Positions 1,210 through 35,604 of a stretch of 50,006 nt of DNA are shown here, one piece after another; position 1 is the first letter of the stretch; the number at the start of each line of letters is the position of its first letter. Origin of the DNA: Alphaproteobacteria bacterium (lineage in GTDB: Bacteria > Pseudomonadota > Alphaproteobacteria > SMXP01). Made by a program: the position numbers and the translations under genes. The stretch is taken from NCBI GenBank assembly GCA_021774995.1, contig JAJFIM010000172.1, forward strand, positions 1 to 50,006, given 5' to 3'. The notes below the pieces were generated by a model, which was not told where the DNA came from, did not search any database, and was given only the letters and a program-made list of their open reading frames with translations.

Positions 1210-1818
1210 ATGTTTAATTCAAATATACCATCTGACAGAGAAGTGCCCTCAACAGGGAAGCTCATTAAATCAACCATTTTAGCAGCGATTACGGCTGGAA
1301 TTTTGCTGGTTACTGTGGTCATGCCTGCCGAATACGGCATTGACCCAACAGGAGTGGGCAATGCTATTGGCCTTAAACGCATGGGTGATATTAAAACCTC
1401 ACTAGCCGAAGAAGCGGCGCAAGATGCTGCTAAGGATACCCAAACCGCAGTTGTGGTTGAAGTTGAGACGGAGCCGCAAGTAGTATCGGAAACTGTACCT
1501 ACCCAAAGCCATGAAAGAGAAGTCACACTTGCGCCGGATGAAGGCACAGAGATTAAGCTGACCATGACCAAGGGCGCAAAGGTTGATTACGTGTGGAAAA
1601 CCAATGGCGGCAAAGCAAACTTTGATGTGCATGGTGACTCAAAGAAGCTGAAGATTGATTATCACAGCTACGCCAAAGGTTCAGAGCAGAAAAGCGAAGG
1701 TACGTTAGAGGCCGCTTTTAATGGAAATCATGGCTGGTTCTGGCGCAATCGTACGAAAGAGCCTTTGACTATTACCCTAAAAACTAACGGTGAATACACC
1801 GACATTAAGCGTTACTAA
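1210..1818 (+). CDS. N-terminally membrane-anchored protein of unknown function (the conserved 'transmembrane anchor protein' type that accompanies HupE-like genes)
   Basis: 202-aa ORF with RBS-like AAAGGAAAA upstream and one TM helix (LAAITAGILLVTVVMPA) followed by a soluble domain. The antisense ORFs 1194-1571 and 1402-1632 are low-complexity shadows. Confidence 0.6.
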   Translation: MFNSNIPSDREVPSTGKLIKSTILAAITAGILLVTVVMPAEYGIDPTGVGNAIGLKRMGDIKTSLAEEAAQDAAKDTQTAVVVEVETEPQVVSETVPTQSHEREVTLAPDEGTEIKLTMTKGAKVDYVWKTNGGKANFDVHGDSKKLKIDYHSYAKGSEQKSEGTLEAAFNGNHGWFWRNRTKEPLTITLKTNGEYTDIKRY

Positions 1819-1850
1819 ACCCACTCACGAGAAAAGAAAGGACAACTCTC

Positions 1851-1979
1851 ATGAAAAAACTAACCAACCCTAAAATTTTAATTCCTATTTTAATCGTTGT
1901 AGCTGTATTGATTGTTATCGCAGTCACCAGCATGACAGGCGGTGAAATGGCGGTCAGCGATCACGGCCATACACACTAG
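1851..1979 (+). CDS. 42-aa single-pass membrane peptide with His-rich tail (..SDHGHTH)
   Basis: ATG at 1851 preceded by AAAGGA. Translation MKKLTNPKILIPILIVVAVLIVIAVTSMTGGEMAVSDHGHTH, stop at 1977-1979. Below the 60-aa cutoff of the ORF track. Fills the gap between two co-oriented genes. Confidence 0.45.
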   Translation: MKKLTNPKILIPILIVVAVLIVIAVTSMTGGEMAVSDHGHTH

Positions 1980-1993
1980 AAAGTAACAGTAAA

Positions 1994-3337
1994 ATGCTAG
2001 AGCCACTCAAAAACTCGACCTACAGGCATTTGTTCTCAGCGCAGGTTATCGCGCTGTTAGGGACAGGCTTGACCACGGTGGCTCTAGCATTGCTGACCTA
2101 TGATCTGGCGGGCGACAAGGCCGGAACCGTCCTCGGCACAGCCCTTGCGCTTAAAATGGTGGCTTATGTGACCATTGCGCCGATTATTGGCGGGCTGGCA
2201 GCGGCCTTGCCGCGCAAAAGGGTTTTGGTCACGCTTGATCTTATCCGCGCTGGCTTTGTATTGTGCTTGCCGTTTGTCAGTGAAATCTGGCAAATCTATC
2301 TTATCATCTTCCTCATGCAATCCTGCTCTGCCGGATTCACGCCGATGTTTCAGGCGACCATACCGGATATTATTCCCGATGAAAAAACCTACACCAAAGC
2401 CTTGTCGCTTTCGCGGCTGGCCTATGATCTGGAATCTCTGGTTAGCCCGATGCTGGCGGCGCTGGCTCTATTGTTTATCAGCTTTGACGCACTGTTTGCC
2501 ACTAACGCCGTGGCCTTCCTGATTTCGGCGGCGCTGGTTGTTACAGCGACTTTTCCAAAAAGGGAGAGAGCCAAGGATGCCAGAGTTATATCGGTTTGGG
2601 AGAAAATCAGTTTCGGCACACGCGCCTATCTCGCCACGCCGCGCCTAAGAGGGTTGCTTGCGCTTTCTCTGGCTGTATCTGCGGCAGGGGCAATGGTGAT
2701 CGTCAATACAGTTGTGATTGTACGTGGTAGTTTCGGATTGGACGCGCAAGATGTGGCTCTGGCTTTTGCGGCCTATGGCGGCGGCTCAATGCTGGCAGCT
2801 TTTACACTTCCAAAGTTACTGGACTATCTGCCGGATCGTCCCGTTATGCTCAGCGGGGCAATTGTTCTGGCCGTTGGTTTACTGGCTGGCTCTACTGTTT
2901 CAACATTCTTCTGGCTTCTGCCCGTATGGTTTTTATTAGGCAGTGCAGCCTCGCTCATCAATACACCAACAGGGCGATTGCTTCGCCGTTCTTCTGCAGA
3001 ACAGGACCGCCCCGCTTATTTCGCCGCGCAGTTTTCTCTCTCTCATGCCTGCTGGTTAATTACATACCCGCTTGTCGGCTTTCTCGGCGCATCCATGGGT
3101 ATCACGGAAACGTTTTATATTCTGATAGGAATTGTATTACTGGGCTTTGTTCTTGCGCTGTTTTTATGGCCAGCCGAAGATCACGCAGCTCTTACCCATA
3201 CGCATAAAGACCTTGATCCCAATGATCCGCATTTAGCAGATGCTAAAGCCGTAAAAGATGGATATCGACATAACCATGATTACGTAATTGACAAAAAACA
3301 TCCTTCATGGCCAGGGCATAATAATTTTTTTAAATAG
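1994..3337 (+). CDS. MFS transporter with His-rich C-terminal tail
   Basis: 447 aa with ~12 hydrophobic helices and the MFS-like loop motif (PRKRVLVTLDLIRAG). Tail reads HTHKDLDPNDPH...RHNHDY...HPSWPGHNN. Confidence 0.8.
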   Translation: MLEPLKNSTYRHLFSAQVIALLGTGLTTVALALLTYDLAGDKAGTVLGTALALKMVAYVTIAPIIGGLAAALPRKRVLVTLDLIRAGFVLCLPFVSEIWQIYLIIFLMQSCSAGFTPMFQATIPDIIPDEKTYTKALSLSRLAYDLESLVSPMLAALALLFISFDALFATNAVAFLISAALVVTATFPKRERAKDARVISVWEKISFGTRAYLATPRLRGLLALSLAVSAAGAMVIVNTVVIVRGSFGLDAQDVALAFAAYGGGSMLAAFTLPKLLDYLPDRPVMLSGAIVLAVGLLAGSTVSTFFWLLPVWFLLGSAASLINTPTGRLLRRSSAEQDRPAYFAAQFSLSHACWLITYPLVGFLGASMGITETFYILIGIVLLGFVLALFLWPAEDHAALTHTHKDLDPNDPHLADAKAVKDGYRHNHDYVIDKKHPSWPGHNNFFK

Positions 3338-23563: not shown

Positions 23564-26320
23564 TTGAACGCCGTAGAGATCGAAGAGGCAATATCACTTT
23601 TAGCGGAACAATCATTTGATCCGGCTGAATTTCCGTATGCGTTTTTAGAAGCCTTTGGCAACAAAACTACGACAATCAAACAATTAAGAAAAGGCACTAG
23701 CAATAAATCCGATATAGAAGGCGGTGTGCTACAGCGTAACAATATTCACATGGCTGTTTGTGCAGAGGGCAGGGTAGAAGAAACGCTCCAAAAACTTAAA
23801 GACAGCCCCCCAACAGCAAAATCCAAGGCTAAATTTATTCTAGCCACTGATGGTAAAGATTTTCAGGCTGAGGACGTAAATAGCGGCGAAACCGTTGCCT
23901 GCGACTATTCTAACTTTCATAATCACTTCGGCTTTTTCCTCCCTTTAGCTGGCATCAGCACCGTAAAACAAATACGTGAAAATTCCTTTGATATTAAGGC
24001 CACAAGCCGCCTGAACAAGCTTTACATCGAACTGCTGCAACATAATCCCGAATGGGCATCAGAAGAGCGTCGTCATGACATGAATCATTTCTTGGCGCGG
24101 TTGATTTTCTGCTTCTTTGCCGAAGATACCGATATTTTTAACGGCGATAATCTATTTACCGCCACCGTTGAAAAAATGAGTAACGGCAATGTAGAAAACA
24201 CCCATGAGATCATAGGTGAAATTTTCCGCGCAATGGATACTAAACAGCCAGAACGCGCGGAAAAGAACATCAAGAACTGGGCAAATGACTTCCCATACGT
24301 AAACGGAGAATTGTTTTCCGGCTCAACAGAAACACCAAAATTTACCAAAATCGCTCGCTCTTACCTGATTCATGTAGGCAATCTGGACTGGAAACAAATC
24401 AATCCTGACATTTTTGGCTCAATGATACAGGCCGTGGCAGATGATGAGGAACGCGGCGCATTGGGGATGCACTATACTTCCGTGCCAAATATATTAAAGG
24501 TGCTTAACCCGTTATTCCTTGATGACCTTCGCGAAAAGCTTGAAGAAGCTGGTGACAGCAAGATTAAGCTTCTTAATCTGCGAAAACGAATAGCGCGTAT
24601 TCGTGTTTTCGATCCAGCTTGTGGGTCTGGTAACTTTCTTGTTATCGCCTATAAGCAAATGCGGGAAATCGAGCATGAAATCAATAAACGGCGCGGCGAA
24701 ACTGGCCAATCCAGTGAAATTCCACTTACAAATTACCGAGGGATAGAGTTGCGGGATTTTTCAGCAGAAGTAGCGCGATTAGCTCTTATTATTGCTGAGT
24801 ATCAATGTGACGTTCTCTATCGTGGCCAACAACTTGCCTTGGCCGAATTTCTACCTCTAAATGCTGAAAATTGGATTACACAGGGAAACGCTTTACGAAT
24901 AGATTGGCTATCAGTATGTCCTCCGACAGGCACAAGCGTAAAGCTACATGGTGATGACTTATTTAATACGCCACTCGATCAGTCTGAAATAGACTTTGAG
25001 AATGAGGGCGGTGAAACCTATATCTGTGGAAACCCTCCATATTTAGGGTCTACATGGCAATCCAAAGAACAAAAATCCGATCTGGAAGCAATTTTTAAAG
25101 ATCATACAAAAACATGGAAGTCATTGGATTATGTAGCGGGTTGGTTTATGAAAGCCGCCGAATACGGCAGACATACAAATGCAGCAGCGGCCTTTGTGTC
25201 AACTAATTCAATATGCCAAGGCCAACAAGTGCCTATCCTTTGGCCTTTGATTTTTAAAACCGACCATGAAATTTCATTTGCACATACTTCCTTCAAATGG
25301 GCAAATCTAGCGAGCTATAACGCCGGTGTCACTGTTGTAATTGTCGGAATATCAAACCAAGCAGGAAAAACAAGACGATTGTTCTCAATAGGCGAGGATG
25401 AAAATACGATTGAAAAAAGAGCTGAAAATATAAATGCCTATTTAGCAGTCGGCGCAAACATTATAGTGAGCAAGGAATCAAAGCCATTAAATAATTTAAC
25501 CTCCATGGATTTTGGAAGTAAGCCTGTAGATGGAGGCAATCTATTTTTAAATCTAACTGAAAAAAAGAGTCTAATTTTTAAGCATAAAGAGGCTAAAAAA
25601 TATATTCATTCTTATTCAAACTCCGAAGAATTCATAAATGGCAAACAACGATTTTGTCTTTGGATTAATGATAATGATTATGAAACGGCAAAAGAATTAC
25701 CAGAAATAGGGCAACGCCTGAACGCTGTTAAAAAAATGCGAGAAGAGAGTTCAAAAGTTCAAACTCAAAATATGGCTGCTTGTCCTCACAAGTTTGGTGA
25801 AGTCAGACATCGTGATAGTTCCTATACAATGGTTGTTCCTCGTGTAAGTTCTGAAAATCGTGATTTTCTTCCTGTAGGCTTAGTCAAAGGAGGGACGATT
25901 GTCGGCGACCGGAATTTTGCGCTTTACGATGCGCCGCTTTGGAATATGGCGTTAATTGCTTCACGCCTACACTGGGTTTGGATCGGTACAGTATGCGTTC
26001 GCATGAGAACGGACTTTTCTTATTCCAACACGCTTGGCTGGAACACGTTTCCCGTTCCGCCGCTTACTGAAAAAAACAAAGAAGACTTAACTGCTTGCGC
26101 CGAAGAAATCCTGATAGCGCGGGAACGGCATTTTCCGGCCACCATTGCCGACCTTTATAATCCAGACAATATGCCGGAAGATTTACGCCGCGCCCATGAT
26201 CGTAACGATGAAGTGTTAGAACGTATCTATATCGGCCGCCGCTTTAAAAATGACACCGAACGCCTCGAAAAACTCTTCGATCTCTACACTCAAATGACAA
26301 CCAAGGGGAGGGTAGCATGA
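23564..26320 (+). CDS. MmeI/PglX-family gamma-class N6-adenine DNA methyltransferase with own TRD; N-terminal nuclease-like domain appears catalytically dead
   Basis: 918 aa with TTG start. Helical motif FLARLIFCFFAEDTDIF, motif I VFDPACGSGNFL, motif IV GNPPYLGS. No D..ExK block in the first 170 aa. Confidence 0.85.
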   Translation: MNAVEIEEAISLLAEQSFDPAEFPYAFLEAFGNKTTTIKQLRKGTSNKSDIEGGVLQRNNIHMAVCAEGRVEETLQKLKDSPPTAKSKAKFILATDGKDFQAEDVNSGETVACDYSNFHNHFGFFLPLAGISTVKQIRENSFDIKATSRLNKLYIELLQHNPEWASEERRHDMNHFLARLIFCFFAEDTDIFNGDNLFTATVEKMSNGNVENTHEIIGEIFRAMDTKQPERAEKNIKNWANDFPYVNGELFSGSTETPKFTKIARSYLIHVGNLDWKQINPDIFGSMIQAVADDEERGALGMHYTSVPNILKVLNPLFLDDLREKLEEAGDSKIKLLNLRKRIARIRVFDPACGSGNFLVIAYKQMREIEHEINKRRGETGQSSEIPLTNYRGIELRDFSAEVARLALIIAEYQCDVLYRGQQLALAEFLPLNAENWITQGNALRIDWLSVCPPTGTSVKLHGDDLFNTPLDQSEIDFENEGGETYICGNPPYLGSTWQSKEQKSDLEAIFKDHTKTWKSLDYVAGWFMKAAEYGRHTNAAAAFVSTNSICQGQQVPILWPLIFKTDHEISFAHTSFKWANLASYNAGVTVVIVGISNQAGKTRRLFSIGEDENTIEKRAENINAYLAVGANIIVSKESKPLNNLTSMDFGSKPVDGGNLFLNLTEKKSLIFKHKEAKKYIHSYSNSEEFINGKQRFCLWINDNDYETAKELPEIGQRLNAVKKMREESSKVQTQNMAACPHKFGEVRHRDSSYTMVVPRVSSENRDFLPVGLVKGGTIVGDRNFALYDAPLWNMALIASRLHWVWIGTVCVRMRTDFSYSNTLGWNTFPVPPLTEKNKEDLTACAEEILIARERHFPATIADLYNPDNMPEDLRRAHDRNDEVLERIYIGRRFKNDTERLEKLFDLYTQMTTKGRVA

Positions 26321-27000
26321 GGTTTGCATTAGTAGATAATAGGAAAGTTGCACCACAACCAAAGATGCAAGGAACTTGCCCTCATTGCGGTGAGGTTATG
26401 ATCTCAAAATGTGGAAGAACCAAAGTTTGGCATTGGGCGCATAAGTCACGAGAAGTATGTGATCCATGGTGGGAAAATGAAACAGAATGGCATCGAAATT
26501 GGAAAAACCAATTTCCTGTAGAATGGCAAGAAATTTCAGCCATTGATGAGCTTACTGGAGAGCGCCATATAGCAGATGTTAAAACACCAGATGCCTTTAC
26601 TGTAGAATTTCAACACTCTCCGATGCCCCCAGAAGAAATGATCGCACGAGAATCTTTCTACGGAAATATGATATGGATAATTGATGGTTTAAGAAATGAC
26701 CTAGATGTTAGCTATTTCAATATGGGTTTAAGCAGAGAACCCGTTAATGTCGATGGACCGCAAGCCCACGCGTTTGAGTGGTGGGGAAGAAGCCGTTTGA
26801 TGCATAATTGGTCAGAAGCTAAGTCGAGAGTCTTTCTTGATTTTGGAGATGAATTTTATAATGGCAAGCCCATGCTGTGGGTACTGATATGTTTTGATAA
26901 AACAACAAAACAGGGTGTTGTAGGCCCATACCCTAAAGCTCTGCTGATTGAAAATATTGTAAACAACAAATGGTGCGACATACCATCCATAACTGAATAA
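26317..27000 (+). CDS. CoiA-like PD-(D/E)xK-superfamily nuclease-fold protein
   Basis: 227 aa. CPHCG zinc knuckle, HWAHKS, ETEWHRNWK, RHIADV, VEFQHSP and MIWIIDG follow the CoiA family order. ATGA overlap with the MTase stop. Confidence 0.65.
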   Translation: MRFALVDNRKVAPQPKMQGTCPHCGEVMISKCGRTKVWHWAHKSREVCDPWWENETEWHRNWKNQFPVEWQEISAIDELTGERHIADVKTPDAFTVEFQHSPMPPEEMIARESFYGNMIWIIDGLRNDLDVSYFNMGLSREPVNVDGPQAHAFEWWGRSRLMHNWSEAKSRVFLDFGDEFYNGKPMLWVLICFDKTTKQGVVGPYPKALLIENIVNNKWCDIPSITE

Positions 27001-27022
27001 ATAGAAAGCTGTAGGAATTATC

Positions 27023-29074
27023 ATGACCGAAAATAAAAGCATACCATCCGTTACTGTAAATTATAAAAGTACAGGCAGCTCCACTTCATCTAACGAGCTA
27101 GGTATGCGCCCAATGCAAGAACGCGCCTATGAAAAGCGCGGTGAACAATATTTGCTTATTAAATCGCCGCCAGCATCGGGGAAGAGTAGGGCGCTCATGT
27201 TCATCGCTCTTGATAAGCTTGAAAATCAAGGCGTGAAGCAAGCCATTATTGCCGTACCAGAGAAATCTATCGGTTCGAGTTTTGCCGATGAACCTCTTAC
27301 AGGCTTCGGCTTTTATTATGATTGGCATGTAGAACCAAAATGGAATCTATGCAACGCCCCTGGGGAGGATGGCAGGAAGATAAATTCAGTTAAATCCTTC
27401 CTTGAAAGCGAAGATAAAATTCTTGTCTGCACACACGCAACTTTTCGCTTTGCCATAGAGCGTTTTGGGGTTGAAGCCTTTGACGACCGTTTAATAGCTA
27501 TAGATGAGTTCCACCATGTCAGTGCTGAAGAGGATAATGTCCTTGGTTCACAGCTTAAACAACTCGTTTCCCGAGACAAAGTGCATGTTGTGGCCATGAC
27601 GGGCTCATATTTTCGCGGTGATGCTAACCCTGTTTTAGCGCCTGATGATGAAGCCAAATTTGATACTGTCACATACACTTACTATGAACAGCTTAACGGC
27701 TATGAATATCTGAAAACGCTTAATATTGGCTATTACTTCTATAGCGAGGCATATGCCGATGAAATTTTAAATGTTCTTGATCCGAATGAAAAAACGATCA
27801 TTCATATACCAAACGTCAATTCCCGCGAAAGTATGGGCGACAAAATCAAAGAAGTTGAACATATCATTGAAGAACTAGGCGACTGGCAAGGGATCGATCC
27901 GGACACTGGCTTTCATTTAGTGAAAACATCAGAGGGGAAAACCATACGAATTGCTGATTTGGTTGATGATGATAAATCAAAGCGCGACAAGGTTTCCGCT
28001 TCCTTAAAACGTCCAGAGGCTAAAAAGAACCGTGACCACGTTGATATTATCATCGCGCTTGGCATGGCAAAAGAGGGTTTTGACTGGATTTGGTGCGAAC
28101 ATGCACTCACCGTAGGTTATCGTTCTAGCCTGACGGAAATAGTACAAATTATTGGGCGTGCCACAAGAGACGCACCTGCAAAAACCCATGCTCGTTTCAC
28201 AAATCTGATTGCTGAACCGGACGCTGCGGAAGACGCCGTTACTGACGCTGTAAACGATACCCTTAAAGCAATTTCAGCCAGCTTGTTGATGGAACAAGTG
28301 CTTGCACCAAAATTCAATTTTGTGCCTAAAAACCCACAAAATACCGCAGACCCAGATTTTGATTACGGGGAAGGGGGCTATAATCCAGATAAGTGTAATG
28401 TCGGTTTTAACGATCAAAGCGGTCAATTTCAGATCGAGATAAAAGGTCTAACAGAACCAAAGAGTGAAAACGCACAACGTATTTGCCAAGAAGATTTAAA
28501 CGAGGTTATTGCGGCTTTCGCTCAAGACAAGCAAGCGATCGAGCGCGGCCTGTTTGATGAAGAAATGGTGCCAGAGGAGCTGACGCAAGTTCGAATGGGG
28601 AAAATAATCAAAGATAAATACCCTGAACTGGATGATGAAGATCAAGAATCTGTACGGCAACATGCTATAGCAGCGCTGAACTTCACGCAAAAAGCAAAAG
28701 AAACACTTAACAACGATGATGAATTAGGAGGGCGTGGTAATACAGCTTTGATTGATGGCGTTCGTAAATTTACAATGGATGTCCGTGATTTGGATGTTGA
28801 TTGGATAGACAGCATTAACCCATTCAGCGAGGCATACTCAATTCTCTCCAAAGCTATGACTGAGCAAAGCTTAAAAGCAATGGCAGAGGTCATATCAGCC
28901 AGAAAACCTAATATATCAGCGGATGAAGCGCGCGAATTAGCAAAACGGGGGCTAAAGTTCAAACAAGAGCGTGGCAGGTTGCCTGATATTAAATCTGCTG
29001 ATCCTTGGGAACAACGTATGGCGCAGGGCATTGCCTTCCTAGCACGCATGAAAGCAGAGGCCGCTAATGGCTAA
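27023..29074 (+). CDS. SF2 (ResIII/DEAD-DEAH-type) helicase without an intrinsic nuclease domain
   Basis: 683 aa. Motif I SPPASGKS, II AIDEFHH, III AMTGS, VI VQIIGRATR. ~280-aa helical C-terminal extension ending in a 'GRLP' module. Confidence 0.85.
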   Translation: MTENKSIPSVTVNYKSTGSSTSSNELGMRPMQERAYEKRGEQYLLIKSPPASGKSRALMFIALDKLENQGVKQAIIAVPEKSIGSSFADEPLTGFGFYYDWHVEPKWNLCNAPGEDGRKINSVKSFLESEDKILVCTHATFRFAIERFGVEAFDDRLIAIDEFHHVSAEEDNVLGSQLKQLVSRDKVHVVAMTGSYFRGDANPVLAPDDEAKFDTVTYTYYEQLNGYEYLKTLNIGYYFYSEAYADEILNVLDPNEKTIIHIPNVNSRESMGDKIKEVEHIIEELGDWQGIDPDTGFHLVKTSEGKTIRIADLVDDDKSKRDKVSASLKRPEAKKNRDHVDIIIALGMAKEGFDWIWCEHALTVGYRSSLTEIVQIIGRATRDAPAKTHARFTNLIAEPDAAEDAVTDAVNDTLKAISASLLMEQVLAPKFNFVPKNPQNTADPDFDYGEGGYNPDKCNVGFNDQSGQFQIEIKGLTEPKSENAQRICQEDLNEVIAAFAQDKQAIERGLFDEEMVPEELTQVRMGKIIKDKYPELDDEDQESVRQHAIAALNFTQKAKETLNNDDELGGRGNTALIDGVRKFTMDVRDLDVDWIDSINPFSEAYSILSKAMTEQSLKAMAEVISARKPNISADEARELAKRGLKFKQERGRLPDIKSADPWEQRMAQGIAFLARMKAEAANG

Positions 29075-30290
29075 AAAACAAGCTTTTACAGATGATGATA
29101 ATGCACTTTTGGAAGAATTAGGCATAGAAACCGAAATTAAGAAAGCGGTTGCTCATACACCAAAAGAGGAGCGGATCATTTCCGGTTTTGAAGAAATACA
29201 AAAATTTATCGAGGATAATGGACGATTGCCTGAACATGGCGAAGATAAGGACATATTTGAACGTCTTTACGCGGTTAGGCTCGATCAAATTCGCAAGCAA
29301 GAAGAAAGCCTAACTCTTCTTAAAAATATTGATTCCCAAAACCTTTTGGATGGAAGCTACGAAGCGGCTGTAGATGTCCCAGATGATATTGACGATGATG
29401 AACTTCTAGCGCAGCTCGGTGTTGATATTGAGAGTGACAACTCCATTACAACATTAACGCATGTTAAGCCTCGCGCTGAGATAAGGGCTGCGGAAGAAAT
29501 TGCCAATCGTACCCCTTGCGAAGATTTTGAGAAATTCAAACCAGTCTTTCAAGCCGTTCAAAAAGAATTGGATATGGGCGTTAGGATTTCTCGAATAATT
29601 CGTAAAGATGCCGGCTTTTTAAAAACAGATATTAAGCAGAGAGAATTTTTCATTCTAGGCGGCCAAACTCTATATATTGCTGAGGTTGGCGAAACTATAA
29701 AAGCGCCTAACGGCCAAACAGACGCACGATTACGCGTCATTTATTCAAATGGTACTGAAAGTGATATTCTGCTTCGTTCGCTTCAACGCGCCATTTATAA
29801 AGATGAAGCGAGCAGGCATATTACAAACCCCACGGCTGGGCCTTTATTTTCCGACAAAGATAGTGAAGGTGATTTAGAAAGCGGCACTATCTATGTGCTT
29901 CGAAGCCTTTCAGATCACCCAACAGTCATAGAAAACAGAGACATTGTTCATAAAATCGGGGTTACTGGTGGTGATGTTGAAAAACGTATTACCAACGCTA
30001 AAAATGACCCAACTTTCCTCATGGCCGGTGTAGAAATCATTGCCACATACAAGCTGGCAAATATCAGCCGCACAAAACTTGAAAAAATCATTCATAAGTT
30101 CTTCAATGCTGCAAAGCTAGATATTGAAATCATAGACCGATTTGGAAAGCCTGTTACAGCTAGAGAATGGTTCTTAGTGCCAGTGTTCGTCATTGACGAA
30201 ATGGTAGAAAAAATTAGAGATGGTAGCATAAGCGAATATTATTATGACCCTAAATCTGCGTCATTAAAGAAAATGGCGGGTCTAAACTAA
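29067..30290 (+). CDS. T5orf172/MUG113 (GIY-YIG-like) domain protein with N-terminal 'GRLP' helical module
   Basis: 407 aa. C-terminal domain has GTIYVLRS...HKIGVTGGDVEKRI...AREWF. 8-nt overlap with the helicase gene. Confidence 0.8.
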   Translation: MAKKQAFTDDDNALLEELGIETEIKKAVAHTPKEERIISGFEEIQKFIEDNGRLPEHGEDKDIFERLYAVRLDQIRKQEESLTLLKNIDSQNLLDGSYEAAVDVPDDIDDDELLAQLGVDIESDNSITTLTHVKPRAEIRAAEEIANRTPCEDFEKFKPVFQAVQKELDMGVRISRIIRKDAGFLKTDIKQREFFILGGQTLYIAEVGETIKAPNGQTDARLRVIYSNGTESDILLRSLQRAIYKDEASRHITNPTAGPLFSDKDSEGDLESGTIYVLRSLSDHPTVIENRDIVHKIGVTGGDVEKRITNAKNDPTFLMAGVEIIATYKLANISRTKLEKIIHKFFNAAKLDIEIIDRFGKPVTAREWFLVPVFVIDEMVEKIRDGSISEYYYDPKSASLKKMAGLN

Positions 30291-31285
30291 TGGGATTACT
30301 ACAGAACGCAATTTACTCAATAGAAGTTGGTATTGAGGACTATCAGGAAGGTGAAGACAAAAGAAATGTATCTGCTGTTCGAAACGTATATGCAGGCATC
30401 CTTCTTCTCCTAAAAGAAAAGCTAGTACGCCTTTCACCTGAATATGACCCCGACCTTCTTATAAAAAAGCGTTTAATTCCACAAAAGAACAAAGCTGGTG
30501 ACGTCGAATTTATTGGAGCCGGAAAAACAACAGTAAACCTCAAAGAGATAGAAGTTAGGTTTAAGAATCTAGGGGTAAGCGTAGACTGGAGCCGACTTTA
30601 CGAAATAAGCCGCCTGCGAAATGAACTTGAGCACTATTACACAGATAAATCTCCTGGGCTGGTACGAGAAACTCTAGCCAAATCATTTCTTATCATAAGA
30701 GATTTTTTAACAAACGAACTAGACGAAAGCCCCGTCTCTATAATCGATCGCGATCTATGGCCTGCGTTCTTAGAGATTGAAGAAGTGTTTTTTGCAGAAG
30801 AAAAAGTATGTAAAGAGTCATTTAAAGGTTTTAACTGGAAGTATGAAACAATAAATCAAGCGGTAAAGCATGCTAAATGTTATTTCTGCGAGTCCTCACT
30901 TGTACAACTTATTGAGCATGAGCCATACGACGATAAACCAGCAGGCAAGCCTCTTTTCAAAGAGTTTCTTACAAAAATGCAATGTAACTCTTGTGGGGAG
31001 CCTATTGATTACTGGCCAGATTTCTTTGAAAAATGCGTAGAAGAGCTTTTGTACACTGATTCATATATCGCCGCTACTGAAGGAGGCATCCCTCCCTACG
31101 ATTCCTGCCCTGAATGCGGAAAAAATACATTTATATTTGAAGAGGGGTGCTGTGTTGCCTGTGATTATAAACCTGAGCATGAGGGGTGCGCTCGCTGTAG
31201 TAATCACATAGGCCTTGATGAACAAGATTTGAACGGATTGTGTTCTTACTGCGCTAACCTAGCTGAAAAAATCAGGAGAGAATAA
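30290..31285 (+). CDS. uncharacterised protein: N-terminal helical domain with RNxxxH (HEPN-like) motif plus C-terminal cluster of six CxxC pairs
   Basis: 331 aa. RLRNELEH at aa 108-115 (nt 30611-30634). CYFC, CNSC, CPEC, CVAC, CARC and CSYC in the last 130 aa. Start overlaps the upstream stop (TAATG), and its stop abuts the next start (TAAATG). Confidence 0.6.
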   Translation: MGLLQNAIYSIEVGIEDYQEGEDKRNVSAVRNVYAGILLLLKEKLVRLSPEYDPDLLIKKRLIPQKNKAGDVEFIGAGKTTVNLKEIEVRFKNLGVSVDWSRLYEISRLRNELEHYYTDKSPGLVRETLAKSFLIIRDFLTNELDESPVSIIDRDLWPAFLEIEEVFFAEEKVCKESFKGFNWKYETINQAVKHAKCYFCESSLVQLIEHEPYDDKPAGKPLFKEFLTKMQCNSCGEPIDYWPDFFEKCVEELLYTDSYIAATEGGIPPYDSCPECGKNTFIFEEGCCVACDYKPEHEGCARCSNHIGLDEQDLNGLCSYCANLAEKIRRE

Positions 31286-32557
31286 ATGCCAACTCAGCCT
31301 GTAGCTATAACACCACCGCATACGGCCATAACTTCTTGGAGCGGTTTTATATACCAGGGCAAGGTTGCCCTGTATCACGTCCTTTGTTTACTAGAAATGC
31401 GACAAGAGTGTGAGGGATACAAATTACAGCTAGATAGCCTAGAAGATTTTGCAATTTTAGACGCTCATTCAAACCCAGTGTCTTTGCATCAAGTGAAAGC
31501 TAAAAAAACTCAATATTATAACGATTACCAAGCTGACATTATCAAAACGAAAGTAAAAGCAGCCTATTGCAATTCTGACCAAGCCTTCTTTCATACAGCC
31601 AGAGAAATTACTGATAAAACTCCAACAGAAATTGCTTCAGATGAAGAACCTGTAAAGCTGTATGAATATGATGGCAAATTCTATTGTGGAGTCGACGAAA
31701 TAGATAGCCAGATTGAAGGACAATTAAAAAAACTATGGGAAGGACAAAGTTTTAAGGAAGCTGATAGCTATACTAGAATAGCTCGTCAGCATTTTGATCA
31801 AATAATATTCAAACAAGTTTTAGCTATCCATGGAATAGTTCACGAAGGCACTCAAAGTGATACGGCAGCGGCATTTAATGAAACCATAGATTTTGATAAA
31901 TTCATTAAGCTTATAGACCATCACAATTTGATGACAATAGGCCAAAGTGAAGAATATTGGCTCTATATTCTTCTAAATGACATGCATCAATATTACCAAG
32001 AATACTGCATTAGTGAAGAGGGTAGCTTCGAAGAAGGCGAAGCAGAAAAACTGGCCAATTATATGTATGCTATAAGCAAACTAAACGAAAAAGAAATACT
32101 GCTCTTTATTAGAAGCATTACTCCACACCGAAAAGGAACCTTAAATTCTCTATCAGAATATAAGGACGAAACGTTTAACCGAGACGACTTTCACTTTGCT
32201 TTCTTAAAAATTCTAAAAACGCTTAAAAAAACGGAGATGAATAAAGGTAATTTATTGCAATGGTTGAAATTAGGCGACTTCTTTTTTCCTACAGCTATCT
32301 CATCACCGCCAAGCGCCACTACAAATGTCTGTATGAAAATCGTAAAGAATTTTAAGAACACTGATTTAGAAGTTTTATATGAAAGGTCTAAATTGATAAC
32401 CTCTGATATTGATGAACCCTCAATTTACGATGCCGTTTCTCATATTATCGGCACTGAGGGTATGGACGACATAGAAAGCAGTGAATACAATATTCTAAAT
32501 TTAAAAAAAGTAGCACTTATATCTTTAGATAAAGCAAAAGATGAAATTAATGATTGA
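31286..32557 (+). CDS. lmuA: Lamassu/ABC-3C effector with N-terminal Cap4/DUF4297-type PD-(D/E)xK nuclease (LmuA/DdmA-like)
   Basis: 423 aa. GFIYQGKVAL ... LDSLEDFAIL ... LHQVKAK is the DUF4297/Cap4 nuclease pattern. Confidence 0.7.
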   Translation: MPTQPVAITPPHTAITSWSGFIYQGKVALYHVLCLLEMRQECEGYKLQLDSLEDFAILDAHSNPVSLHQVKAKKTQYYNDYQADIIKTKVKAAYCNSDQAFFHTAREITDKTPTEIASDEEPVKLYEYDGKFYCGVDEIDSQIEGQLKKLWEGQSFKEADSYTRIARQHFDQIIFKQVLAIHGIVHEGTQSDTAAAFNETIDFDKFIKLIDHHNLMTIGQSEEYWLYILLNDMHQYYQEYCISEEGSFEEGEAEKLANYMYAISKLNEKEILLFIRSITPHRKGTLNSLSEYKDETFNRDDFHFAFLKILKTLKKTEMNKGNLLQWLKLGDFFFPTAISSPPSATTNVCMKIVKNFKNTDLEVLYERSKLITSDIDEPSIYDAVSHIIGTEGMDDIESSEYNILNLKKVALISLDKAKDEIND

Positions 32558-33269
32558 TCTTATAAAAAATATTTTTACTAGCTACGGCTACACAAATACT
32601 GGATTAGACTCTCCAGATTTAACTTTGTACTCAAGTTCAGGTGATAGAGAGGAATATTGGCTGGTAACTCGAATTAATTCCGAGACTGACGCCTTACAAG
32701 AACAGCAAAACTTTTTTGATCGATGTGCCACACACATTGATAGTCCTACCTTAGAGAAAAATGTATCACTTTTGATGGTTTGGGAAACATCTGGTCACCT
32801 TCCACTAGAGGACCTTAAGAGAAAGATCATGCAAATAGAAGAAGACGCATATTTCTTTAAAAAATATGTTTTGCATTATGCGCCGCAACAAAAAGTAGCT
32901 CTGCAGCAAGAGCTAGGAGAAGAAAACAGCTTAAAAGATTTTCTATCCGAAAAAATAGTCAACCAGGACATATTTAAAAGATACAAAAATGAAAAATTAG
33001 AGAATAGCCATACAATGACTTGGGAATCTCTAATATATCGAATGGCGATTAAAATCCCTTTCATAAACGTAAAAATTGAATCTAAAGATGATTTAGGTTC
33101 CCTAAAGAGAGAAAACCAAGAGGCAATTGATGAAAAAGAGGCGCATATAATTGAGATAAATGAAAAGCTCTTCTCTTTGAGAAAGCAAGATTACCTTTTT
33201 GACGCTGAGACCGCACCAGAGGAGTTATTGGATGCTCTAGAGGAGGAACTAAATGAAAATCAGAATTAA
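32541..33269 (+). CDS. lmuC: Lamassu/ABC-3C middle component (LmuC/DdmB-like)
   Basis: 242 aa, acidic and helical. Assigned from its position between the nuclease effector and the SMC-like ATPase, with 17-nt overlaps on both sides. Confidence 0.55.
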   Translation: MKLMIDLIKNIFTSYGYTNTGLDSPDLTLYSSSGDREEYWLVTRINSETDALQEQQNFFDRCATHIDSPTLEKNVSLLMVWETSGHLPLEDLKRKIMQIEEDAYFFKKYVLHYAPQQKVALQQELGEENSLKDFLSEKIVNQDIFKRYKNEKLENSHTMTWESLIYRMAIKIPFINVKIESKDDLGSLKRENQEAIDEKEAHIIEINEKLFSLRKQDYLFDAETAPEELLDALEEELNENQN

Positions 33270-35604
33270 GCGCATAAAAGTTGAGGGGTTTAAGTGCTTT
33301 CAGAGTTTTTCAAGAAACTTTTACAGCGAAAACATAATAATATTCGATGGGCCAAATGGATTTGGCAAAACATCTTTTTACGACGCAATTGAATTTCTTT
33401 TCACCGGCCAAGTTCGACGCTATGAAGAATTAGTGACAAGCATTGTTGATAAAAGAAGCAATAGCCAAGACGGAAGCCCACTCTTAAATAAAGACTATGA
33501 TGGGGAGGGCTTAAGTATTAAAGCTGAATTAGAGGTTAATGGAGAGACCGTCTTTTTAATGAGAAAAGAAAGTGCAGTCACTTTAAGGTCACAACAAAAA
33601 ATAAGTTCTACAAAACTCCCATTGTACCGACTGAAAAGCTTCGAAGATAACAATCCACCACGCGAAGAAAACGAGACAGAATACTTACAAGGTCTTTTTG
33701 GAAAAGATTACATCGAAAATTTTGAATATCTCAATTATATAGAGCAACAAGAAAATATATATCTACTCAAACAACCTGACAAAGGTCGTGCCACTGCAAT
33801 TGCTCATCTCTTTAAAACTTCAGAGTTTCAAAATAAAATCCAACTGATTACCGATGCAAAGAAAAAGCTTAAAAAGCTCTGTGATGCTGATAAAAAAAGG
33901 CAATTAGAATCACAAAAGCAAGATCTTGATGAACAAGAAAAACGTTTTAATGAAAGTGAAATAAATCAAGCAGATTACACGCGTTTGATCAATTGGAAAG
34001 AAATAGTATGGGACAAAAAACAAATCGACGTTCCAATATCTAGCTTTGTAGAATGGCTTGATGATGATGGCGAATTAGATGGGCTACTACAGCTAGTCAG
34101 CCATCACAAAGAGTATAAGAAAGAACGAGAAAATAGAAAAATCAAGGCACTACTTGATAATGAACCCCTATTAAAACAGTACATACAGTATTGGAAATAT
34201 ATAGAGAAAGAACCCAGCCTATCACGCGCACTGAGTTTACAAGATGAAATAACTGATTTTTTAAAATCCTATGAAAATGGTGTTGTAAACCACATTGAAA
34301 AAGATCCCTTTGTTTTAAGCGAAGATCTTAAAAGTATATTACAACAAACAGAACTAATTGATTACACAAGCTACACCCCAAGTTTAGAGCATATAAAATC
34401 AGTTCAAAGCAGAACTAACTCCTTCTCTGTAATGTTGACTAAAATTCAAAGTACCAGACAGAATTTTATTGATAAATTTTTAAAGCACTCAACAGAGTTA
34501 GCACATGAAGGCGCTTGTCCATTATGCGGTTACTCATGGGAAGATTTAGAAAAACTAAAAAAAGAATTTAAAGAACAAGAAAAGCATTTCCAAGTCTTGA
34601 TAGAGAAAGAAGGAGCTGAGCTAAATCGAGCAGTAGAAGCCTTTGAAAAACAAACATTAGTTCCTTTGAAAACGTTTTTAACTGAATATAAAAATCAGCA
34701 CAAAATAGACAAAGAATTTGTTCTTAAATTGCAGAAGGCAGTACAAAACAGAGATCATTTACATAGGTTAAACCAGGCTTTAGAAGCTAGAGGCATCAAC
34801 ACTCTTGAATACACGAAAGAAGCAAACATTGGTCATGATGAAGTAGGAATAAATGCGTTACTCAGAGAAATATCGTCTCAAGTAAAGGCAGTGGACTATG
34901 AAAAAATACAGTCAAACTATGATGCACTATTTATAGAAATCTTTGAAAAAAGCTTTGATAAGCTCAGTTCAATAAGCGCTGATGATATGAAAAATAAAAT
35001 TACATTCATAAAATCACAATTTGCCCTTAAGAGAAGTGAAGATATTCAGAAAAAACGTAAAGAATATACACACTCTGAAAAACTATTTAAGCGAGCAAAA
35101 AATACACACTTAAAACTAAGTGAACTGGAGAAAATATACAAAAAATCTTTAAGTGACTATCAAAGTAGTTTTATCGAAAATATAGAAATATTATTTCATA
35201 TCTACTATGGACGGATAGCACAAGAAACAAAGAATAGCTTGGGGCTTTTTATTCAATCCGATGGAAGTGCTATAAAATTTTTAGAACACCATTCCAGAGA
35301 TACTGACGCGATTTTTACTATGAGTGCCGGCCAATTGGCGACACTAGTAATCGCTTTTACACTTGCATTAAACAAACGGTTTTCTAAAAACAAGCTTCTC
35401 TTTATTGATGATCCCATACAAACGTTAGATGAGTTAAATATAGCCGGTTTAGTTGAGTTGTTGCGTAATGAGTTTGATGACCAACAAATTTTCTTATCTA
35501 CGCACGAAGATTCAATGTCCACTTACATTAGGTATAAATTTAAAAAATTCGGACTCCAGCACGAAAGACTAAGCTTTAAAGAAGCACAACTTAAAGCTAT
35601 CTGA
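33253..35604 (+). CDS. lmuB: Lamassu SMC/Rad50-like ABC ATPase (LmuB/DdmC-like) with central CxxC zinc hook
   Basis: 783 aa. Walker A GPNGFGKTS, signature MSAGQLATL, Walker B LLFIDDP, LSTHE. Long coiled coil with CPLCG at aa 422-426. Confidence 0.8.
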   Translation: MKIRIKRIKVEGFKCFQSFSRNFYSENIIIFDGPNGFGKTSFYDAIEFLFTGQVRRYEELVTSIVDKRSNSQDGSPLLNKDYDGEGLSIKAELEVNGETVFLMRKESAVTLRSQQKISSTKLPLYRLKSFEDNNPPREENETEYLQGLFGKDYIENFEYLNYIEQQENIYLLKQPDKGRATAIAHLFKTSEFQNKIQLITDAKKKLKKLCDADKKRQLESQKQDLDEQEKRFNESEINQADYTRLINWKEIVWDKKQIDVPISSFVEWLDDDGELDGLLQLVSHHKEYKKERENRKIKALLDNEPLLKQYIQYWKYIEKEPSLSRALSLQDEITDFLKSYENGVVNHIEKDPFVLSEDLKSILQQTELIDYTSYTPSLEHIKSVQSRTNSFSVMLTKIQSTRQNFIDKFLKHSTELAHEGACPLCGYSWEDLEKLKKEFKEQEKHFQVLIEKEGAELNRAVEAFEKQTLVPLKTFLTEYKNQHKIDKEFVLKLQKAVQNRDHLHRLNQALEARGINTLEYTKEANIGHDEVGINALLREISSQVKAVDYEKIQSNYDALFIEIFEKSFDKLSSISADDMKNKITFIKSQFALKRSEDIQKKRKEYTHSEKLFKRAKNTHLKLSELEKIYKKSLSDYQSSFIENIEILFHIYYGRIAQETKNSLGLFIQSDGSAIKFLEHHSRDTDAIFTMSAGQLATLVIAFTLALNKRFSKNKLLFIDDPIQTLDELNIAGLVELLRNEFDDQQIFLSTHEDSMSTYIRYKFKKFGLQHERLSFKEAQLKAI

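Follow-up and report, generated by a model that had tools for sequence, protein, structure and literature searches.

The S64 gene and its setting

The window analysed here is a stretch of 50,006 nucleotides from an Alphaproteobacteria bacterium (NCBI GenBank assembly GCA_021774995.1, contig JAJFIM010000172.1), and the element of interest is an open reading frame (ORF) of 331 amino acids (aa) at positions 30290–31285 of the forward strand, here called S64, which runs from an ATG to a TAA codon in the ORF listing and its translation. S64 is part of a nine-gene operon, within which it lies between a module of MmeI, CoiA, helicase and T5orf172 genes and a Lamassu system. Its upstream neighbour is a T5orf172-domain gene (Pfam PF10544, E = 1.5e-12) and its downstream neighbour, labelled LmuA by PADLOC, encodes an ABC-3C CTD1 domain. 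The start codon of S64 overlaps the preceding stop codon in a TAATG junction, and at the 3′ end a TAAATG junction sets the stop codon of S64 (31283–31285) directly against the lmuA start codon at 31286.

A first-pass annotation of this DNA had described the ORF, a helical N-terminal half, the motif RLRNELEH, six CxxC pairs and translational coupling on both sides. All of these were recovered: the motif occupies residues 108–115 with R110 and H115 placed as claimed, exactly six CxxC pairs were counted, the AlphaFold2 models agree on the helical half, and the two junctions are of the coupled kind. On the evidence of conservation, the motif, the cysteines, the helical half and the junctions are not products of chance, since R110, E114, H115 and 11 of the cysteines do not vary among 36 homologues. 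The same annotation had regarded the protein as an orphan that could not be placed in a named family, and on both points it was overturned.

Family membership and distribution

The window protein matches the PADLOC model PDLC05058, which represents the candidate family PDC-S64, at E = 2e-42, with residues 3–296 aligned to profile positions 10–286 of 305, and it also matches a second PADLOC model, PDLC05059, at E = 1.6e-4. The PDC-S64 model was matched by 36 of the 36 aligned homologues, and scans of the window protein against Pfam and NCBIfam gave nothing above threshold. PADLOC classes PDC-S64 as a single-gene candidate, and it is a 'phage defence candidate' (PDC) by way of guilt-by-embedding (Payne et al., bioRxiv 10.1101/2024.01.29.577857). 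A literature search returned no text on PDC-S64 domains or testing, and the name was not found in the supplements of the PADLOC preprint.

Homologues are numerous and widely spread. A word-indexed search recovered 108 homologous clusters at 90% identity, spanning gamma-, beta-, alpha- and deltaproteobacteria, cyanobacteria and myxobacteria, and a locus search of species-representative genomes, run with a closer 15-sequence alignment, found 128 S64 loci, some of them also in Acidobacteriota, Gemmatimonadota, Nitrospirota, Verrucomicrobiota, Bacteroidota, Chloroflexota and Firmicutes. An exhaustive profile search returned 1,719 representatives at 50% identity with E ≤ 1e-3, including 517 with E ≤ 1e-30. 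Nearly all of the best 150 of these 1,719 representatives are 305–330 aa long, and the stand-alone architecture is therefore the norm. A 732-aa 'open frame' at the homologue in genome G312 was considered as a possible fusion and rejected as a high-GC artefact.

Within the class of the window, S64 was found in six of 401 genomes, each from a different genus, and in none of the three genomes of the same family, a patchy distribution which is that of an accessory gene. Plasmid records with the gene numbered 13, of which all but one are conjugative or mobilisable (12), and every one annotates it as 'hypothetical protein'; a tblastn search of 50,697 phage records gave no S64 match. The nearest homologues of the window protein (loci L001 and L002, 85–86% amino-acid identity) are binned in a Micavibrio metagenome-assembled genome (MAG) and a Nitrospirota MAG, that is, in different phyla, so that either recent horizontal transfer or the mis-binning of plasmid contigs is indicated.

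Domain architecture and homology to HEC-08

In an alignment of 36 diverse homologues with identities down to 26% (alignment A1), the invariant positions are G14, D17, R25, S28, R31, N32, G36, L39, L40, K42, P50, R110, E114, H115 and W157, with N111 conserved in at least 90% of the 36 sequences and core helix 2 forming the most conserved block. R110 and H115, on whose conservation the earlier proposal of a HEPN ribonuclease (RNase) had been made to depend, are thus unchanged throughout the alignment, and RNxxEH is kept in 37 of 38 genome copies. One copy from a Terriglobales MAG (L045, 8001–8540) has RKDIER in place of RNxxEH and is probably a catalytically dead variant.

AlphaFold2 models built with the family alignment had a predicted local distance difference test score (pLDDT) of 88.9 and a predicted template modelling score (pTM) of 0.77 for the full protein, and a pLDDT of 92.0 and pTM of 0.89 for residues 1–180. 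The modelled elements are, in order, a helix at 3–20, a helix at 23–48, an insert at 49–99 containing a beta-hairpin (59–81) and a helix (84–94), a helix at 100–115 with the motif at its end, a loop, and a helix at 122–143. The HEPN core has been described as two alpha-hairpins, helices 2 and 3 being frequently separated by an insert (Anantharaman et al. 2013, PMC3710099), and the modelled helix order of the S64 N-terminal domain fits that description. The four-helix core anticipated in the first-pass annotation is matched in helix order only, as Foldseek gave no significant superposition on a HEPN structure. The full model had no match at E ≤ 0.001 in the Protein Data Bank (PDB) and BFVD taken together, an uncharacterised metagenomic Siphoviridae protein appearing at E = 3e-3. 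For the N-terminal domain, the best PDB match was a FAT-domain four-helix bundle at E = 0.38, and the HEPN entries in the same search were non-significant at E > 2, namely 2hsb (TM-score 0.62, E = 2.7), 8xeh_B (a HEPN-MNT complex) and 7bxo_F. A PDB sequence search with the N-terminal domain profile returned nothing meaningful. The fold evidence that the models offer for HEPN is topological only, and no structural proof is claimed.

The C-terminal part of the protein contains the pairs CYFC197, CNSC232, CPEC273, CVAC288, CARC300 and CSYC318, out of 15 cysteines in the whole protein. Eleven of the 12 cysteines in these pairs are invariant in alignment A1, and the twelfth, C321, is invariant in a closer set (A2). 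Short strands flank the zinc-ribbon knuckles in the AlphaFold2 model, and Pfam DZR (PF12773) was weakly matched by 29 of the 36 members (best E = 3.2e-5), the window protein itself falling below the Pfam threshold. The cysteine pattern and the weak double-zinc-ribbon matches are consistent with the three zinc ribbons that had been proposed, which are to be read as predicted. When the full family profile was compared with PDB sequences, only weak zinc-ribbon matches were obtained, to eIF2-beta (E = 0.0015) and eL37 (E of about 0.01). The former pairs residues 135–230 (window 30692–30979) with the C-terminal helical-plus-zinc-ribbon part of eIF2-beta, and the latter involves the last two S64 ribbons; both similarities may be a generic zinc-ribbon likeness.

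The weak PADLOC matches of the 36 members were all to HEPN models, namely Csx1 (9), DUF3644 (6), HEC-08 (2) and CARF_HEPN (2). Pfam DUF3644 (PF12358) was reached by seven of the 36 members, below threshold and with a best E of 0.013, and the hidden Markov model (HMM) for HEC-08 was matched by only two of the 36, with a best E of 9.6e-4. The comparison between families was made with a HEC-08 homologue found in the class to which the window belongs (L081; HMM E = 9.8e-68, 358 aa, motif HRNKWIH) and an alignment of 24 HEC-08 relatives, four of them with a precomputed PF12358 assignment. In hhalign the S64 and HEC-08 alignments matched with 98.3% probability (E = 1.5e-14) across 287 columns, the two motifs falling opposite each other, and the S64 N-terminal domain alone gave 77.5% and E = 1.9e-5; a BLASTP comparison of S64 with the L081 homologue aligned only the helix-2 block, residues 10–47 with 21–59. 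DUF3644 is a HEPN family of the EC042_2821 clade in which the Rx4-6H motif is conserved, and fusions to zinc ribbons and an occurrence in restriction-modification (R-M) operons have been reported for it (PMC3710099). HEC-08 protected Escherichia coli from phage, mutation of its motif histidine H128 abolished defence, and its N-terminal domain matched the HEPN toxin SO_3166 (bioRxiv 10.1101/2024.01.29.577857). On profile evidence PDC-S64 is a remote sister family of HEC-08 with the same architecture, S64 being filed as a sister and not as a HEC-08 member because the window protein does not match the HEC-08 HMM. Together, the conserved Rx4H motif, the helix order and the alignment with the HEC-08/DUF3644 profile support the earlier HEPN call, and S64 very probably combines a HEPN-like domain with zinc ribbons, as a member of family PDC-S64 and a homologue of HEC-08.

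It could be objected that the helical domain is merely HEPN-like and that S64 is a non-catalytic, nucleic-acid-binding or regulatory zinc-ribbon protein, a reading which would agree with the lack of a significant HEPN match in the fold searches and with the weak resemblance of the zinc ribbons to eIF2-beta, eL37 and TFIIB. However, the invariance across phyla of R, N, E and H in an exact HEPN motif is hard to explain without catalysis, and S64 is homologous to HEC-08, whose motif histidine is needed for defence, so this explanation appears quite improbable. The features of the gene and protein are collected in Table 1.

Table 1. Coordinates in the window of the S64 gene, its junctions and the features of the encoded protein
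Feature	Position	Strand	Basis
Complete ORF, 331 aa, member of PADLOC candidate family PDC-S64	30290..31285	+	Translation; PDLC05058 E = 2e-42
TAATG junction, T5orf172 stop (30288–30290) and S64 ATG (30290) overlapping by one base	30288..30292	+	Sequence read
N-terminal HEPN-like domain, about residues 1–145	30290..30724	+	AlphaFold2 models; PMC3710099 topology; hhalign to HEC-08/DUF3644
Core helix 2 with invariant R25, S28, R31-N32, G36 and K42 (SAVRNxxAGILLLxKEKL)	30362..30433	+	Alignment A1; BLASTP to HEC-08
Predicted catalytic Rx4H, R110-N111-E-L-E114-H115, at C-terminal end of core helix 3	30617..30634	+	Conservation; aligns with HEC-08 HRNKxIH
Helical connector, about residues 146–194, with invariant P148 and W157 and near-invariant C174	30725..30871	+	Alignment and model
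Predicted zinc ribbon 1 (C197/C200 ... C232/C235), strands 205–210 and 228–232	30872..31000	+	Four cysteines invariant; model strands; weak eIF2-beta profile match
Predicted C-terminal double zinc ribbon (C273/C276 + C288/C291; C300/C303 + C318/C321)	31100..31258	+	Cysteine conservation; weak Pfam DZR
AGGAGAG Shine-Dalgarno sequence for lmuA (31274–31280) within S64 3′ end, then TAA and lmuA ATG	31274..31288	+	Sequence read

Genomic context of the family

Comparison of the window with the loci of close relatives by blastn placed the limits of homology at the limits of the gene, at 30288–31291 for L001 (86% amino-acid identity), 30296–31289 for L002 (85%) and 30290–31289 for L086 (79%). In all three, the two ends of the homologous stretch lie no more than 6 nt from the start and stop codons, and recombination or selection therefore preserves exactly one ORF. 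The contexts of these relatives differ, comprising a PDC-S06 ABC ATPase, a type I R-M and SIR2 cluster with a small GIY-YIG gene, and a SMEK operon. The last of these lies at L001 (6193–10059, and also at L090–L094), on a marine plasmid with an RP-C replication protein, where genes for a SMEK_N protein, a 221-aa protein, S64 and a 358-aa protein are tightly coupled and the operon adjoins Tn3 and BrnT/A. Neither the 221-aa nor the 358-aa protein has a match in Pfam or PADLOC, and the SMEK protein matches the N-terminal part of the Argonaute-associated PADLOC model 'Aga_REase-PNTD1-PNTD2'. On a Methylomonas plasmid, S64 follows DUF1156-DUF499 genes.

One S64 homologue, of 318 aa and with a GC content of 0.42, stands by itself in a complete high-GC genome (L097, 4254–5210; G312:C1, approximately 2924753–2925709) between sdhA (GC 0.70) and sdhB (GC 0.67), separated from them by gaps of only 23 and 97 bp. 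Neither a recombinase nor repeats were seen at its flanks, and the gene is a foreign cassette of one ORF within a housekeeping operon. Taken over all loci, S64 is an autonomous unit that moves singly between defence islands, plasmids and integrative elements.

Conserved partners were sought by BLASTP of nine window proteins (MmeI-like, CoiA-like, helicase, T5orf172, LmuA, MComp1, LmuB, DUF2130 and MkoC-like) against every ORF within 8 kb of S64 at 80 genome loci. There was no homologue of the window T5orf172, helicase, MmeI-like, LmuA or LmuB protein within this distance at any of the 80 loci, and the single recurrence was a CoiA-like gene at L039. In this Arenimonas MAG (1464–3153), S64 lies between a KfrA-like plasmid gene and the CoiA-like gene, which is 51% identical to window 26317–27000. 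A 412-aa ORF coupled upstream of S64 at L022, L026 and L031 was considered as a T5orf172 relative and rejected, being a tyrosine integrase. Co-occurrence with the T5orf172 gene or lmuA, which had been suggested as a check in the first-pass annotation, is thus rejected for the family as a whole, and with no conserved partner at the 80 loci, and no partner gene in common among about 90 loci outside the window, the idea of an adaptor linking the helicase/nuclease block to Lamassu is not supported for the family, and is a weak possibility in the lineage of the window and of locus L089, described below.

These results also bear on the possibility that S64 is a fifth component of the MmeI-like/CoiA-like/helicase/T5orf172 module, for instance as its RNase or nucleic-acid-binding subunit. 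The TAATG overlap with the T5orf172 gene, the similar GC content of S64 and the upstream genes, the CoiA-like gene next to S64 at L039 and the small GIY-YIG gene that precedes S64 at L086 could each be taken in its favour. However, homologues of the helicase, T5orf172 and MmeI-like proteins stand near S64 in the window only, L089 has S64 without the upstream module, and homology with the relatives starts at the S64 ATG and not upstream of it, which together make a subunit role highly improbable.

Clustering of the neighbours revealed no family in common beyond synteny within Psychrobacter, and the 97 immediate neighbours that were scanned proved heterogeneous, comprising defence genes (AbiL, AbiU, type I, II and IIG R-M, BREX PglX, PD-T7-5, several PDCs and AIPR), genes of mobile elements (integrases, IS110 and KfrA), parts of toxin-antitoxin systems and ordinary genes at island edges. 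Such surroundings admit a reading in which S64 serves as a toxin, an addiction module or some other selfish gene that stabilises plasmids and integrative elements, and not an anti-phage gene. S64 does occur on conjugative or mobilisable plasmids, adjoining BrnT/BrnA and RelE/ParE pairs, Tn3, integrases and KfrA, and HEPN domains are common toxins (PMC3710099). However, the neighbour clustering showed no conserved adjacent antitoxin gene, many of the neighbours are bona fide defence genes, and the homologous HEC-08 gives phage defence, so that a purely selfish role seems unlikely.

Origin of the nine-gene operon

The GC content of S64 is 0.40 and that of the upstream genes 0.40–0.44, against 0.335–0.354 in Lamassu, whose three genes are flanked on both sides by genes at 0.40–0.44. 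The lower GC content of Lamassu suggests separate origins, and the difference argues against a long co-residence of S64 and Lamassu. The upstream module (window 23564–30290) consists of an MmeI-family type IIG protein, a CoiA-like protein, a DEAD/ResIII helicase and a T5orf172 protein; the MmeI-family protein is full-length (PADLOC REase_MTase_IIG E = 4e-297, with all five MmeI Pfam domains), the helicase has a weak PbeA match, and PADLOC gave no system name for the CoiA-like, helicase and T5orf172 proteins together. The Lamassu genes (window 31286–35604) encode LmuA (ABC-3C CTD1), MComp1 and LmuB/SMC-like. A scan for promoters and terminators from 22.8 to 36.2 kb gave counts at shuffle level.

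Among the loci of the four closest relatives, adjacency to Lamassu was found only at L089, a metagenome contig of a conjugative element with a TraG/TrwB-like coupling protein. L089 (8001–11046) and window 30289–33338 have in common an S64-LmuA-MComp1 block, junction included, in which nucleotide identity is 74%, and the homology runs from the S64 start through lmuA and MComp1 to the contig end, with amino-acid identities of 81, 70 and 70%. In place of the T5orf172 gene, L089 has 618 bp without a called gene before S64, which would therefore be the first gene of the operon there. Because this block occurs without the MmeI/CoiA/helicase/T5orf172 module, the window operon is a fusion of separable units. 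Judged by the shared block, S64 and Lamassu move together in this sublineage, with S64 at the head of the operon, and in the window the block has been joined to the upstream module.

A possible explanation of this arrangement is that in this lineage S64 has become an accessory of Lamassu, perhaps as an additional sensor or a reserve effector working with LmuA, MComp1 and LmuB, since the stop codon of S64 abuts the lmuA start codon, the lmuA Shine-Dalgarno sequence lies inside S64, and L089 repeats the block and junction with S64 in first place. Against this, none of the 80 genome loci has a LmuA or LmuB homologue within 8 kb, the closer relatives (86%, 85% and 79%) adjoin different genes with homology breaking at the ORF ends, the GC content of S64 departs from that of the Lamassu genes, and the PADLOC class is that of a single-gene candidate. 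An accessory role in Lamassu is accordingly doubtful.

A broader reading would combine these observations, with PDC-S64 and HEC-08 forming a superfamily of gene-precise 'plug-in' HEPN/zinc-ribbon cassettes that are swapped at ORF boundaries into unrelated operons, and with S64 acting here as the leader of the Lamassu operon and cooperating with Lamassu, for example as an RNA-level second layer that answers the same trigger signal. It draws on the breaks in homology at the start and stop codons in three relatives, on the copy between sdhA and sdhB and on the recurring S64-LmuA-MComp1 block, and taken as a whole it is a speculative reading to which a low probability is given.

Proposed function

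The reading preferred here is that S64 is a self-contained, single-protein anti-phage effector, an abortive-infection RNase of the HEPN-plus-zinc-ribbon type embedded in a defence operon, and this is considered probable, though less so than the assignment to the family. HEPN domains would pair, with R110, N111 and H115 of the two subunits forming a metal-independent endoribonuclease site, and cleavage would be expected to leave 2′,3′-cyclic phosphate ends, as extrapolated from HEPN biochemistry (PMC3710099). The triple zinc-ribbon array might autoinhibit the enzyme, or recognise RNA or a phage trigger. Infection would then activate S64, cellular and/or phage RNA would be cut, translation would stop and the infection would be aborted. 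The position of S64 in the operon would represent the 'embedding' of an independent defence gene, and not a mechanical link between the two modules.

Several points weigh against this interpretation. The RNase activity and the dimerisation are inferred, as are zinc binding and the trigger. Foldseek searches of the PDB with the full and N-terminal domain models found nothing at E < 0.3, and because no HEPN match was significant, the HEPN assignment is transitive, passing through DUF3644 and HEC-08. The window protein itself matches neither Pfam DUF3644 nor, even at E ≤ 10, the HEC-08 HMM (PDLC04162). The PDC systems are listed as 145 untested candidates (bioRxiv 10.1101/2024.01.29.577857), PDC-S64 among them. 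Finally, the tight coupling on both sides and the S64-Lamassu block of L089 leave room for cooperation in this lineage.

The cataloguing of PDC-S64 as a candidate was already known, as were the architecture and mechanism, which are as in HEC-08 and the DUF3644 HEPN clade. What is added here is the homology between PDC-S64 and HEC-08, the residues to mutate (R110 and H115), the gene-precise cassette behaviour and the recognition that the nine-gene operon is a mosaic. PDC-S64, which PADLOC had catalogued as a candidate without a description, thereby receives a domain-level and mechanistic reading, tied by profile homology to the tested HEC-08. PDC-S64 and HEC-08 together would define a broader class of HEPN-plus-zinc-ribbon single-gene defences, with approximately 1,700 representatives at 50% identity in many phyla. 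The nine-gene 'operon' is a mosaic of at least three separable units and not one machine, which matters for any test of the MmeI-like module or of Lamassu. None of these findings would be very surprising to a specialist in phage defence.

Comparison with known systems

Within PDC-S64, the window protein is a member with nothing different in kind. The closest system beyond the family is HEC-08, to which S64 aligns end to end, both having an N-terminal DUF3644-type HEPN domain followed by several zinc-finger-like modules, with the helix-2 block AGIxLLLK and RNxxxH in common and a similar length (approximately 330 aa for S64 and 355 aa for HEC-08). Both are single genes, embedded in or adjoining other defence systems. 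They differ in that the relatives of HEC-08 have eight conserved CxxC pairs, corresponding to four ribbons, whereas S64 has six, corresponding to three, and in that an invariant EHWSL block in the HEC-08 relatives is absent from S64; pairwise identity is approximately 18%. The EC042_2821/DUF3644 clade (PF12358) resembles S64 in its HEPN domain with Rx4-6H, its reported zinc-ribbon fusions and its reported occurrence in R-M operons, but the winged helix-turn-helix and restriction endonuclease fusions described for EC042_2821 proteins are absent in S64.

Among the classical single-protein HEPN RNases and toxins of abortive infection, comparison was made with RnlA/LsoA, the anticodon nucleases PrrC/RloC, AbiU2/AbiV/AbiJ and HEPN-MNT toxins such as SO_3166. 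PDB searches and Foldseek gave no significant sequence or fold match of S64 to any solved HEPN structure. The likeness to these systems lies in the predicted metal-independent Rx4-6H RNase chemistry, the location in defence islands and R-M loci, and the expected abortive outcome. However, S64 comes without an ABC ATPase, an MNT antitoxin or an RnlB-like partner, and its regulatory or sensing part would instead be the triple zinc-ribbon array.

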